Source: Octopus vulgaris
Taxonomy: Eukaryota
DNA length: 64,000 nucleotides
NCBI GenBank assembly: GCA_951406725.2
Contig: OX597820.1
Span: 95,790,001 to 95,854,000, forward strand
Reading direction: 5' to 3'
Shown here one piece after another: positions 3,280 through 43,865 of the stretch; within the stretch, counting starts at the first letter, position 1, and the number at the start of each line of letters is the position of its first letter. The translations under genes were made by a program, and so were the position numbers. The notes under the pieces were generated by a model that saw only the letters and a program-made list of their open reading frames with translations, was not told the DNA's origin and did not search any database.

Positions 3280-4323
3280 GTGTGTTTCCTTTATGCACGG
3301 ATCAATCTGTACCAAATTTGGCGCGAAGGTTTTTCATTAGTTGGGGAAGGTTCGGGGGGTCTCTAACTTTGGCCCTTGCCTATATAGGGGGCTATAGCTC
3401 CCACTATACGGCCCATTCGTTTTTTTTCAGCGGTATATTACCAAATTTGGCATGAAGATTTTATATTACTCGGGGAAGGGCCTTATAGGACCCTTGCGAC
3501 TTTTTCCAGCGGAATAATATTGTTTAACTTTTGATAACGCTATAGTATTGTTTCACTAATATTCTTTCATTAATTGCTCTACTTTTATTCTTTCACTTTT
3601 GATAAGACTATAATATTGTTTATACTATATACATACAACTGCTTAAAGAAATAGAGATTAATGTATATTTTTTTCTATGTTCATACATAATTTTTTGTTT
3701 ACAATATTGAAAGATACCACCAAAGATAAGTTGTAATCTCTCCAGAAACAATGATAAAGCAAGGATGGTTGTAAAAAACCAAAAGCGAGCGTCTCAAGAG
3801 AGAAAGGAGATGGGAATTTCTCAAGATCAGCAAACGCATGCTGCAGCACGTCAAATGGAGTCTCAAGGTAAAAGGGAGATTAGACTTTCACAAGATCAGT
3901 AAATGCATGCTGCAGAACGTCAAATTCAATCTCAAGAAAGAAGCGAAATGGGACTTTCTCAAACTCAGCAAAGGGATACTGCCGCACGTTAGATGGAGTC
4001 TCAATACAGAAGGGAGATGAGACTTTCCCAAAATCAGCAAATGCATGCTGCAGCATGTCAAATGGAGTCTCAAGAAGTGAGACGATACTTTTCCAAAATC
4101 TCCAAATGAAACTAATGACATGCATTGCTCAGGTGGTAATGTAAGATTGCTAATACTACCAGCTCCTTCTTAACTTCTTATAGATCTTCTGGAAGGCATT
4201 TCCTTCCAGTGAAAGGATTTTCTGAAAAATATCAGACAATACTAATCTGCATTTCATATAACATGGTTTGGTGCATCTGAGGAGATAGTCGAACGTGGAT
4301 TTACGCCAACGTTCAAAGTTCAA
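3280..4323 (+). mobile_element. Helitron remnant (Rep/helicase N-terminus, pseudogenised)
   Basis: 63-bp (21-aa) repeats at ~3790-4080 (HAAARQMESQ-like), then HCSGGNVRL..PAP..LL.G...FLKNIRQY*SAFHITWFGA...GFTPTFKVQ, which matches the Helitron RepHel N-terminal motif FLxNIRxYNSxFxMTSFG; in-frame stops are present. Confidence 0.75.
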
Positions 4324-4937
4324 TTTCGCACTTCGGCCAAAGAATTTAGCATTTATATCATTCAAATTAAAATGCCAGTCGAGAGCACTGAAATTAGTCG
4401 GAATGCGAGAAAGCGTATTTTCGAGCTTTCGAATATGTTTCGGAACAATCTATTTAATACTTCGAGCAATCAAATTAGCACGACAGCTGCTTTGGTTTTA
4501 TCTCATGATCATTGTTATCACAATCATGTGCTTTCATCCATTGTTTATGCTTTAAGCACGTTATCATGTCTATGTCTTTTCTATGTATTCTTTTATTTTT
4601 GCATAGGTACAGGTATTTATTGTTAAAGATTGCATGAAACTGCATTCCAGCCTTTTCAATCTTTTTAAAGAAAATCGCAATTACAACAAATGCTCATTTT
4701 CTTCGATTTTGAATACATTATGTTGTGATATGTATTCTTCCTTTGCATAATATGACATGTTGGGAAAGTATATATTTCTTTGATTTTGCATTTTTCTTTC
4801 ATTAGGGAAAGGGGGCTGTCTACACTAAGATAATTATTGATTTATAGTCTTGATAAGGATAGTTCGTTTGAGAGGATTTAGCCATCTATTTTCTAGTGAC
4901 CGGGACATCTCGGTAGGTAGGTCTGGGTGTTTCTATA

Positions 4938-5545
4938 CTAACGAACACAATTTTCTGGGGTGATAACGTCGACGTTACGGCTTGTGACCTGTTGTATGAC
5001 ATGTGCTCGCCGTTCTTCCATGGTCAAGCCGGCTTCTTCTGCAGCTGCCCGGTCGCTAACCTTTTGTTGCAAGTCAGCTCGAGGGGAATCCCACTTGACA
5101 GCCACATTAAAGGCATAATGCGCTATTTCCGAACAATTAAGAAACGGCGAGTAGGGAGGCAGGAGTTTCAGACTGATCTGTGGTTCGGCGTCAGCTGGGA
5201 GCTCGGCGTGAATGTGTGGTCCCGCGTTGTCGTAGACTCCCTCTTTCATGAAACAATGTGCGTACTCATAACGCTTTTCCCGAGTTCTTGGAGTATTTCT
5301 TGCATGTGGTCGTCTTCGGGCAACTTCATAGTTATCAACATCCCATCTAGAGCCCATGAGATTGCAGACGCGGAATCAGGCAGCTTTCCGGGAAATGCTG
5401 CCTCTAAGTCCCTCTTTATCTGTTGAAGGGTTGCGAGTGAATTGGCATCAATAATCACCTGAACTACTCCTTTTAATGTCAAGTGTGTCGGCCAGTTGCA
5501 GGTAATCGGTTTGATGCCCCTCGAAGGCGTCAACCAGCTTTGCAC
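4938..5545 (-). pseudogene. Degenerate IS630/Tc1-type DDE transposase
   Basis: Frameshifted ORFs 5246-5545 (HTH-like TLQQIKRDLEAAFP) and 4938-5357 (DNAxxH...LPPYSPFLNxxE). Confidence 0.7.
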
Positions 5546-5661
5546 TATCTTCGTCTGATATACGCATGTACCTTACGCGTGGCTCCATGACTACAAGTTA
5601 GCGTAAGAGAAAGGGATATGAAATGCAACTGATACCGACCGGTTACGAATGTTTCAAGACT

Positions 5662-7190
5662 TTGATTTTTTTATTGCTAACAAAGGGCCAACACAGAGGG
5701 GACCAACACAGTCTAGTTTTTGGGGTCAGGCGGGGCAAATGCCAAAGCACTGAGATGCTTTTAATAATTTATAAAATTATAAAATCGAATGATGGACGAA
5801 CAAAAACACAAAACAAATGAGGAGGTGAAAGGGGTTTTTGCTCCGACCCGACGAGTCCCGTTCCACCACCGATACTCGTAATACGGCCCATGTCATATTC
5901 ACGCGGTTTCTTTCACACGCAACACTCATGCCACACGCATCCATCTGTCCTTGAACATTTTCTCCGACAGGCATATCCTCTCTAGCCCCGCTTTCCTTTA
6001 CAGGTGAAAAGCGAAATATCTCACCAACTCGGGATCAGACATGAAATTACCTGTCACTAATCCTTTCATTCGCGACTTCCATATCACCTCTCTCGGGATT
6101 GCTACTACCGCGAGAAAACAATTCTTACCTTCTTTCTTTAGAAAAACAGGTGGGTCAATTTTCTGAATTGACTCTAACGACAGCTGTACTCTCCTTGTAT
6201 CGAACAAAAGGTGTTCTGCATAAGCCCACACTTCTGACACCTCCGGACACTGGACAATAGGGTGCAGGACGGTTTCCGTCTCCTGCTCGCATCTTGGACA
6301 AGCCGATGGGCCGGGATGATCGTGTCTAGTATGCTTGTCACGAACGGGTAAGGTAACATTGCCAAGCCAGAGACTTTTGGCAGTCATCCAGTTTTTTAGG
6401 CTCGAATGTCCATTGGGAAAGACTGTGCAGTTGATTATCATCGGGAGCTTCTGGGTCACAAAAAAAAATTAACTGTTTCTCTGAAACCCGGTTTCTTTTA
6501 AACAGGACCAACACCACGCCTCCGCCTGCTCGATGGCCTAGAGAAATAAATTTCTCGTAACCGTCCAGGAGCAGATGTCTTGACCCCCTTAACCAGGCTT
6601 CAGTAGCAACAATTACATCAAAATTGCGTGTCCTAAAATTTAGGAAGTGACCTTGCTTCTAACTCGGCGTTAGACTATGTACATTTATGCAACCAGCATG
6701 AACAGCCATTAAGACTTACTTTAATTGGCGGTGGGAGTCTGAGGGGAGTCCGCCTCTTTTTCTTTCTCACTGTCTCGTGGGTTTAGAGTAAAATAACCAT
6801 CTGAAGAGGGCCTACATCATCCCTGTAATCATTCGGTAATATATCGTAATTTTTCTGATTTATGCAGTACACCGCAATATCATTTTTTACATTTTCCTCG
6901 ATCCGCTTGGGGGTCGAACTGACTACCAACAGGCTTACCAGTCTATCGTTCGAACTCCGCACCGCCATATAATAATCGCGTTGTTTTTCTACTGAAGGCA
7001 TTTTAGATTTTTTTAGATTTCTCTCCTCAGTTTTCACTGGGGAGTTGGTTTAACTTTTCTTTATTCATCATAGAGCAATCTTCCCCTTAGTGCTCTCTGG
7101 TGTTGTTTTATTGCTCTCTCTGTAGCTCTACTGCCCTCTGGTGTTGCCGGTTCCTTTTCTGACTCTGTCGCTGCCTCCTCCTTCTTAGAA
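5662..7190 (-). mobile_element. L1/Tx1-clade non-LTR retrotransposon fragment, internally deleted, nested in the Tc1-like element
   Basis: ORF 5998-6459 has LPVRDK...CPRCEQETETVLHPIVQCP (zf-RVT C-terminus), homologous to 10091-10612; AATAAA-type 3' end near 5670; possible ORF1 remnant at 6783-7037 (low certainty). Confidence 0.65.
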
Positions 7191-31352: not shown

Positions 31353-31463
31353 TTTTAAAATGAGAATCAAAACGGTAAGATAACAGAAGAAAGAAAGAGA
31401 CCTCAATATTATGTAAATAGAGGAAATTTATCTGTAAAATAATATGTGACAATTATTCGGTAG

Positions 31464-31531
31464 CCAAGATAAAACTCTGAGTTTCGGATGCCGAGGTGGA
31501 AACCCACAACACCATCTCTTCGGTTATCTGG
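31464..31531 (-). ncRNA. Mirror-image hammerhead variant on the opposite strand
   Basis: Left arm of the same palindrome; the distal stem II is GTGG-gttt-CCAC here versus GTAG-actt-CTAC in the right arm. Confidence 0.65.
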
Positions 31532-31537
31532 AGATGG

Positions 31538-31605
31538 CCAGATAACCGAAGAGATGGTGTTGTAGACTTCTACCTCGGCATCCGAAACTCAGAGTTTTAT
31601 CTTGG
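31538..31605 (+). ncRNA. Minimal type-I hammerhead ribozyme variant (U4C core)
   Basis: GATAA-CCGAAGA-GATG...CATC-C-GAAA-CTC-A-GAG-TT/TTATC: stem I GATAA/TTATC, quasi-palindromic stem III, GUU site at 31594-31596. Confidence 0.65.
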
Positions 31606-31636
31606 CTACCGAATAATTGTCGCATATTATTTTACA

Positions 31637-31690
<54 letters not shown>

Positions 31691-32078: not shown

Positions 32079-32111
32079 CAGATATAATTTCCGGAGACAT
32101 GAGGAAAGCTG

Positions 32112-32168
32112 TTGATCACACAGCTGTTCATTTCACAACCGTTGTGAAATGAACCGTTGTGTGATCAA
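32112..32168. repeat. Short palindrome, 28-bp arms with a 1-nt loop
   Basis: TTGATCACACAGCTGTTCATTTCACAAC-C-GTTGTGAAATGAACCGTTGTGTGATCAA, 2 mismatches, 40 bp from (TA)n. Confidence 0.85.
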
Positions 32169-32607
32169 TCTGCATTGTTATGGATGGATTCACCTTCTCT
32201 GAGAAGTTAACAGTCTTTTTAAAAGCTTTTTATAAAACTGTGCATCATTGGAAAGCAATTTGAGTCTGCTTATAATTTGACTTTAAATTTCATAGAACTC
32301 ACTCCTAATACTTCATGAGGATAGACACACTCTCTAGGATGTCTGGAAAACATATATATGTGATTTAGCTGATGAATACTGGACATTTGTATTTGCTGCA
32401 ATACTTGCAGCTTTAAATAAAATTGTTCTTGGTATGAAACAATTGTACTAAACTACTAATCCATTCTTGTTGCTTTTTTCTTGGTTATAATCACCCCACA
32501 TTATTTTATGGTTAATACCAAAAACAATTCTGGTGCATCTAAGTTAAGTGCCATATTCATTTGAATTCATTGGAATTCACTTGAATCTTAATTGTTTTTG
32601 GCTGAAA

Positions 32608-43298: not shown

Positions 43299-43363
<65 letters not shown>

Positions 43364-43421
43364 CATTATTGGTGAATTGAAGAAATGGAGCTGAACGCAG
43401 ATTGAACAGAAATCGTTTTAT

Positions 43422-43508
43422 TTCATTCTACACGTGTTTCGAAAGGCACAAATTACCAAAATCCGATGGAATAATGGGACCATATTGTGTCTTTCTCTTC
43501 AGGAAGAA
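43422..43508 (-). ncRNA. Identical hammerhead ribozyme on the opposite strand
   Basis: Mirror copy in the left arm; predicted cleavage between 43429 and 43428 of a minus-strand transcript, which is the sense of the host LRR gene intron. Confidence 0.82.
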
Positions 43509-43560
43509 AATAGGAAATCCGTTGGAAAAACAAAAACAGAACAGAGGCGGATTTCCTATT

Positions 43561-43647
43561 TTCTTCCTGAAGAGAAAGACACAATATGGTCCCATTATTC
43601 CATCGGATTTTGGTAATTTGTGCCTTTCGAAACACGTGTAGAATGAA
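43561..43647 (+). ncRNA. Type-I hammerhead ribozyme with an intact core
   Basis: TTCTTC-CTGAAGA-GAAAGACACAA...TTGTGCCTTTC-GAAA-C-ACGT-GTA/GAATGAA; canonical CUGANGA and GAAA, GUA cleavage triplet ending at 43640, palindromic stem III ACACGTGT, then AATAAA. Confidence 0.82.
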
Positions 43648-43865
43648 ATAAAACGATTTCTGTTCAATCTGCGTTCAGCTCCATTTCTTCAATTCACCAA
43701 TAATGTTCTAATTTCAATTATCCGCACCAACGCACGGTTGCAACACCATATGGTTGTACCTCCAACCGTGCTGTTTTACTGCTGTTTTACTGCTGTGATT
43801 TTTGCTACTAAGGTATCGGTTAAACTTTTGATTAATCTACTACAAGATTATTCATCTTTCTATTT

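Follow-up and report, generated by a model that had tools for sequence, protein, structure and literature searches.

The portions of the literature on which we draw describe a characteristic insertion footprint for Penelope-like elements (PLEs), in which inverted pLTRs carry a tail at one end only (PMC3846280, PMC8557442). Dual hammerhead motifs on opposite strands, 100-700 bp apart, have been described in Schistosoma, a layout of the same type as that considered here, and cleavage by PLE hammerheads is reported to be dimer dependent and weak (PMC4209133). With a Poseidon element in vitro, both target strands were extended, the tail corresponded to the stretch between two reverse transcriptase (RT) start sites, and insertion proceeded without hammerhead cleavage (PMC11167929). 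The Hydra clade is marked by the motifs RWK, DKT, CxCX5C, CxxC, and CxH around a conserved E and N and by an EN that lacks the CCHH motif; File S2 of the same study holds 26 Hydra rows, five of which have a stem III of the form actc-x-gagt, one of them identical there to the motif reported below, and the role of hammerheads in PLEs is called unclear (PMC8557442).

We analyzed a 64,000-nucleotide window of the Octopus vulgaris genome (contig OX597820.1, positions 95,790,001 to 95,854,000) that contains a palindrome of two 99-bp arms around a 6-nt spacer, AGATGG (Table 1). This feature very probably consists of two 5'-truncated pLTRs of a Hydra-clade Penelope-like retrotransposon set head to head, likely left by one insertion event and by now only a passive remnant. 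The original prediction had described 99-bp arms, a 6-nt loop, and about five differences, four of them clustered, and the coordinates and mismatch list agree: the arms differ at 31447/31622, 31498/31571, 31502/31567, 31503/31566, and 31505/31564, four of the five falling inside 8 nt. Distal stem II on the motif strand reads GTGG-GTTT-CCAC in the left arm and GTAG-ACTT-CTAC in the right, as first stated. The extent proposed there, 31433 to 31636, was correct for the arms and too small for the element, since family sequence continues along the left copy as far as 31369; BLAST against the family reference aligned 31531-31369 on the minus strand at 94%. The left arm thus has a tail of about 64 nt, and the tail sequence also lies 5' of the open frame in full-length copies. 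The left end of the palindrome has no TA run and stops short of the tail's final ~8 nt, and the CA/TA run at this locus adjoins the right end only. No target-site duplication (TSD) was readable in the palindrome flanks; TSDs are optional in microsatellites. Relative to the nearest subfamily majority, the left arm has two differences, one of them in the tail, and the right arm has four.

Table 1. Parts of the palindromic locus and its immediate surroundings, in window coordinates
Feature	Position	Strand	Description	Basis
One-sided tail	31369..31432	-	Left copy beyond the short end point; family sequence running from pLTR into 5' UTR	
Left arm, 5'-truncated pLTR copy	31433..31531	-	Outward to the left	
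Left-arm predicted type I dimer-type hammerhead	31464..31531	-	Core CCGAAGA 31523-31517; cut nucleotide 31473	Descriptor scan, constrained fold
Junction spacer AGATGG	31532..31537	+	Parent sequence directly upstream of the motif, retained on the right arm only	Family majority
Right arm, 5'-truncated pLTR copy	31538..31636	+	Stops at the family's short end point	
Right-arm predicted hammerhead	31538..31605	+	Stem I first; core 31546-31552; stem II 31553-31583; GAAA 31584-31587; palindromic stem III up to 31595; cut nucleotide 31596	Descriptor scan, constrained fold
Distal stem II mini-hairpin	31562..31573	+	Derived changes 31564, 31567, and 31571 relative to family GTGG-ATTT-CCAC	
(CA)n/(TA)n microsatellite	31637..31690	.	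Right end, likely target	Sequence; most family loci end beside TA runs

A search of the animal's own genome with the right arm returned at least 55 matches (40 of 337 candidates scored). In one parental locus (L061), two pLTRs flank a broken RT-nuclease frame followed by a LINE insertion. Two others (L148 and L150) hold tandem 2.59-kb units (2,588-2,590 bp) that differ by 0 to 6 bases plus small indels, some with an open frame of 717 amino acids in which RMRWK (RWK), SDKT (DKT), CSCRNKELC (CxCX5C), CGLC (CxxC), and CPH (CxH) occur. As in the Hydra clade, there is a single ORF in a unit under 3 kb, with RT followed by a C-terminal GIY-YIG EN; the EN match was subthreshold (E of 0.058 with Pfam on one protein piece), and Pfam gave no match on the full parent protein. 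In most of the family loci shown, the ends lie beside TA runs, pointing to insertion at (TA)n. Placement in the Hydra clade is suggested by the motifs and by the likeness, judged by eye, of the protein to the published Hydra-1_Obim. The feature is of a known kind, and the family is a new member of it. A non-LTR retrozyme, that is, tandem head-to-tail noncoding hammerhead repeats, was rejected because the pair is head to head and the tandem units are protein coding.

Several sequences in the parental and family loci were recorded in passing. In L061, a LINE-type reverse transcriptase frame (588 amino acids, minus strand) occupies 3340-6700, between the PLE frame and the 3' pLTR. A frame of 231 amino acids on the minus strand of L062 (598-1290) is a candidate Tc1/mariner transposase, judged by motif likeness. 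In L005 (1590-1610) and in the family majority, a pyrimidine run followed by CAG immediately precedes the hammerhead and recurs at the short end point, resembling a 3' splice site; in the Penelope element of D. virilis, the end of an intron adjoins the hammerhead (PMC4209133).

Each arm had been said to contain a hammerhead-like motif with a CCGAAGA (U4C) core and a GUU site, and a descriptor scan found it in both. The order in each arm is stem I, CCGAAGA, a 31-nt stem II, GAAA, ACTC-A-GAGT, U at the cut site, and stem I again. GAAA, three helices, and an NUH site (here GUU) are all present, with a stem I of 6 bp and an interrupted stem II; the core departs from the type I sequence CUGANGA in both arms, whereas older subfamilies have CUGAAGA. 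With its 1-nt loop, stem III could be closed only between two molecules, at a predicted -7.4 kcal/mol, and the unconstrained best fold of the single arms differs from the hammerhead by 1.8 and 2.4 kcal/mol. The hammerhead would cleave only as a dimer of same-strand copies, such as those of the tandem parents, and not inside the palindrome; truncated copies carry the motif because it sits in the pLTR. Across both strands of the window, the descriptor scan gave three matches, the two arms and an AT-rich one at 32369, while the Rfam scan of the window gave 86 matches at E ≤ 1, none of them a hammerhead. The third descriptor match, at 32369-32450 (CTGATGA ... GAAA, with a 60-nt AT-rich stem II), is weak and may be due to chance. 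A short imperfect inverted repeat at 32105-32176 corresponds to a subthreshold miRNA-like hairpin match.

We sorted 119 distinct motif copies into six subfamilies (115 copies), leaving 4 unsorted. Among the subfamily majorities, 7 of 10 unpaired sites had changed versus 4 of 38 paired sites (P = 0.0004), or 4 of 31 paired sites when those fixed by one search pattern were dropped (P = 0.0013, with unpaired sites again at 7/10); other patterns fixed further sites and the paired and unpaired classes were set by eye, so that support for a fold conserved between subfamilies, as these sequence comparisons suggest, is moderate. Between subfamily majorities there were no two-sided compensatory changes, three one-sided changes that kept a pair, and one lost pair. 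The proposal that the fold had been under selection is favored by the apparent conservation of the stems across subfamilies and not by the compensatory pair on which it had been based. The idea that stem II became steadily less stable along the lineage was rejected, as the predicted energies (-14.2, -14.9, -13.0, -13.0, -12.5, and -13.7) follow no clear trend.

The U4C core and the bulged stem II might have been private decay, but both proved to be family traits. Exact-pattern matches in the genome numbered 3,756 with C4 and 843 with U4 in an identical context, and a looser U4 pattern reaching older subfamilies gave 2,718. C4 was found in 32 of 39 copies of the window's group and in all 8 distinct young copies; U4 was found in 43 of 44 copies of the three oldest groups. 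The youngest group had identical motifs in 33/33 matches at 31 places, with U4C at every one of the 31 young places checked (loci picked by an identical nuclease domain; 150 of 23,296 candidates scored). A 42-row tree formed a ladder from U4 to C4 subfamilies, with strong support at 2 of 36 inner branches, a bootstrap that had not settled, and no outgroup; the direction U4 to C4 was taken because the three U4-end subfamilies show a divergence of 5.8-7.8% and the window's group one of about 4%. U4C is therefore inherited and recent, and not decay. The very young Hydra-type subfamily (L148 [G000:C3:37227500-37237499], L150, and L151-L180) has an identical nuclease domain at more than 120 places among the matches listed; its copies are spread over most of the large contigs, frequently arranged as inverted pairs or tandem arrays and in some cases with 717-amino-acid frames, and it has likely been amplified recently.

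The change from G-C to A-U in distal stem II had been offered as a sign of selection, and the genome-wide counts for that pair do not bear this out. Of 1,109 arms in one pattern frame, 1,051 had G-C, 29 G.U, 25 A.C, and 4 A-U. Single changes that break the pair (A.C) and those that keep it (G.U) were equally common (P = 0.68), as neutral decay predicts; counting against the neutral reading, A-U doubles exceeded independence (4 versus 0.86 expected; Fisher P = 0.009). The four A-U copies stand on different sequence backgrounds. L147 and L021, both A-U copies (L021 outside the pattern), have one further change in common and may form a tiny A-U sublineage. For the right arm, an A-U subfamily was rejected, since its exact stem-loop was seen once among 29 A-type matches and the other copies lie on other backgrounds.

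Judged against the nearest subfamily majority, the right arm carries the derived letter at three of the four clustered sites and the left arm at the fourth. Five differences placed on 99 sites clustered to this degree in 0.4% of 200,000 random placements, and like clustering was seen in 2 of 36 family pairs, the present one and the badly aligned L096. The family sequence at distal stem II forms an inverted repeat of 5 bp, and template switching on DNA can produce paired changes of this sort in the absence of selection (PMC8794818); either a single mutation copied over this 5-bp DNA mini-hairpin or two independent transitions may lie behind the symmetric pair. The four-in-8-nt cluster stays somewhat unexplained. 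Distal stem II is not a general hotspot (22 of 204 differences in 35 other pairs versus 25.2 expected by length), and RNA editing fixed by reverse transcription was rejected, there being no sense-strand A>G excess (0.012 versus 0.019 for T>C). Misassembly of a long palindrome as the source of some of the clustered differences would account for the rarity of the cluster and for a right-arm variant unique in the assembly; it is very improbable, as all four changes are transitions, like ordinary family mutation, and no indels accompany them. Among the contigs of four runs, possibly from other individuals and of a kind that drops rare variants, none matched at 100% over 31565-31567, which speaks neither for nor against the right-arm variant.

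Inverted pairs made up 40 of the 70 pattern-found loci (L031-L100, the first listed places on two contigs), or 36 of 65 without five loci picked for close matches. All were head to head, and in 28 of the 40 one arm was tailed and the other short. The locus in the window has the PLE footprint of an inverted 5'-truncated copy with a tail at a single end. In the mechanism we propose, the element's GIY-YIG nuclease would nick AT-rich microsatellite DNA, and reverse transcription would begin on both sides of the break, from the short end on one side and from the tail end on the other, two fixed positions that lie shortly downstream of the hammerhead; the two cDNAs would terminate prematurely, their 5' ends would be joined, and the differences between the arms would date from after insertion. 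We infer the two starts by analogy with another clade in vitro, and the published alternative is a self-priming fold-back (PMC3846280), by which the inverted arm would arise from one cDNA or antisense RNA and not from two priming events. Fold-back suits the usual agreement of arms in their markers and the junctions of L003, L013, and L015, which are centered on a short natural palindrome in the parent, but the two different fixed arm ends in 28/40 pairs fit two RT starts and the junction here is a 6-nt nonpalindromic spacer, so that we consider it somewhat unlikely. It would alter the mechanism only, not the identity of the element.

The arms had been suspected of representing separate subfamilies and two template molecules, but both are nearest the same subfamily majority (at two and four differences), and two templates are therefore not needed. 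Within pairs, the arms agreed at subfamily markers in 30/32 and 32/35 cases, and arm distance was 0.066 within pairs versus 0.093 to other arms (37 pairs with at least 60 shared columns, query-biased loci included). The few discordant pairs (3 of 35 at a two-base marker, 2 of 32 at a second one) could reflect either two RNAs or a single RNA with two unlike pLTRs, and the parent L061 does carry two unlike pLTRs (C2:58710490 and C2:58716711). Nothing of the kind is seen in the window's pair. In L011, L012, and L015, the arms differ at the two-base subfamily marker and the tailed arm has the same allele in all three, which makes them two-template candidates. For the window's pair, an origin of the arms in two RNA templates (separate masters, or the unlike pLTRs of a single transcript), with the A-U stem on one of them, remains improbable: the A-U copies with a further common change (L021 and L147) speak for it, and the single A-type match to the right-arm stem-loop and the other backgrounds of the remaining A-U copies speak against it, while two identical RNAs would be indistinguishable from one. 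The reading of the palindrome as a selected ambisense ribozyme unit, retrozyme- or viroid-like and working on both strands, is largely refuted and hardly credible. Both arms do contain a complete motif and the stems are conserved among subfamilies; nevertheless, a single transcript holds one motif and its complement, with the hairpin that buries the motif predicted to be favored (-169.7 kcal/mol for the whole-palindrome transcript versus -83.1 with the motif forced), stem III requires a same-strand partner, junction points vary between loci, changes in individual copies disrupt and preserve pairs equally often, and the parents are protein-coding tandem elements.

The window contains a further palindrome at 43362-43707, and the expectation that the architecture would recur across families held: this second family has it, and it is the published PLE insertion footprint. 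Of 42 matches to the segment 43548-43707, at least 39 are identical copies. The parent, a tandem unit of 3.6 kb, contains an open stretch of 899 residues, a CUGAAGA core, and the same short or tailed ends. The two palindromes had been called unrelated, which is true of their DNA and not of their parent proteins, which are 40% identical over 483 residues; they are sister families of one element type. Within 43362-43780, the arms are identical over 160 bp, the core is the canonical CUGAAGA, and a tail extends to the right of 43710. In the parent of this family, RT and nuclease are separated by a long Ser/Asn-rich stretch, and a clear CxCX5C is absent.

Taken by itself, the palindrome matters little, being one among the many stumps left by elements of a known type, and it illustrates how a lone apparent compensatory pair can mislead without family counts. 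Specialist interest lies only in the U4C core inherited by the lineage that was amplified last. Tentatively, it is possible that a master copy whose core was weakened from U4 to C4, with its stems conserved, founded the lineage that then gave the latest burst of copies, the pLTR fold being kept mainly for a role other than fast cleavage, for example binding or positioning of the element's protein. A recently amplified family with U4C fixed and U4 ancestors in the same genome make direct comparison possible. If the noncleavage reading were true, the six subfamilies would be a natural allelic series for asking what purpose the Penelope hammerhead serves.

Core variants of this kind have been described elsewhere. 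A viroid U4C hammerhead cited by Perreault et al. (2011; PMC3088659) is reportedly much slower in vitro and still sufficient for infectivity; the core change is the same, whereas the present U4C is fixed in thousands of retroelement copies within a predicted dimer-type motif. The minimal dimer-type hammerheads of metazoan PLEs (Cervera and de la Pena, 2014; PMC4209133) resemble it in having a type I motif in the pLTR, a palindromic helix III, and a long, bulged helix II, and the variants in the available portions of that report include U3-A8 and not U4C. Our literature search found no published PLE U4C case among the records listed, and studies of dimer cleavage of PLE hammerhead variants may list one. 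All 26 Hydra rows of File S2 in PMC8557442 start with ctga, in contrast to the C at position 4 in the present family, and as that file was made by a descriptor search, such core variants may be missed there; the present stem II is also longer than those of the Hydra hammerheads and is interrupted, and the motif sequence was not found in the available portion of the supplement. The head-to-head inverted pLTRs of Adineta Pen2a and others (PMC3846280), tailed on one side and inserted at AT-rich targets, are like the present locus, at which pLTR ends alone remain, the tail is about 60 nt versus 30-40 nt, and no TSD is seen. A likeness is also seen to the Hydra clade of C-terminal EN+ PLEs (Hydra-1_Obim, Penelope-3_HM, and Penelope-13_HM; Craig et al., 2021, PMC8557442), with which the family has in common a single ORF, RWK, DKT, and CxCX5C, as well as a unit under 3 kb, (TA)n targets, a 3' hammerhead, and a palindromic stem III with a 1-nt loop. 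In Penelope-3_HM, actc-a-gagt and the cut letter t are identical to those of the present motif, and Penelope-13_HM, like the palindrome described here, has an inverted truncated copy with the motif on both strands.
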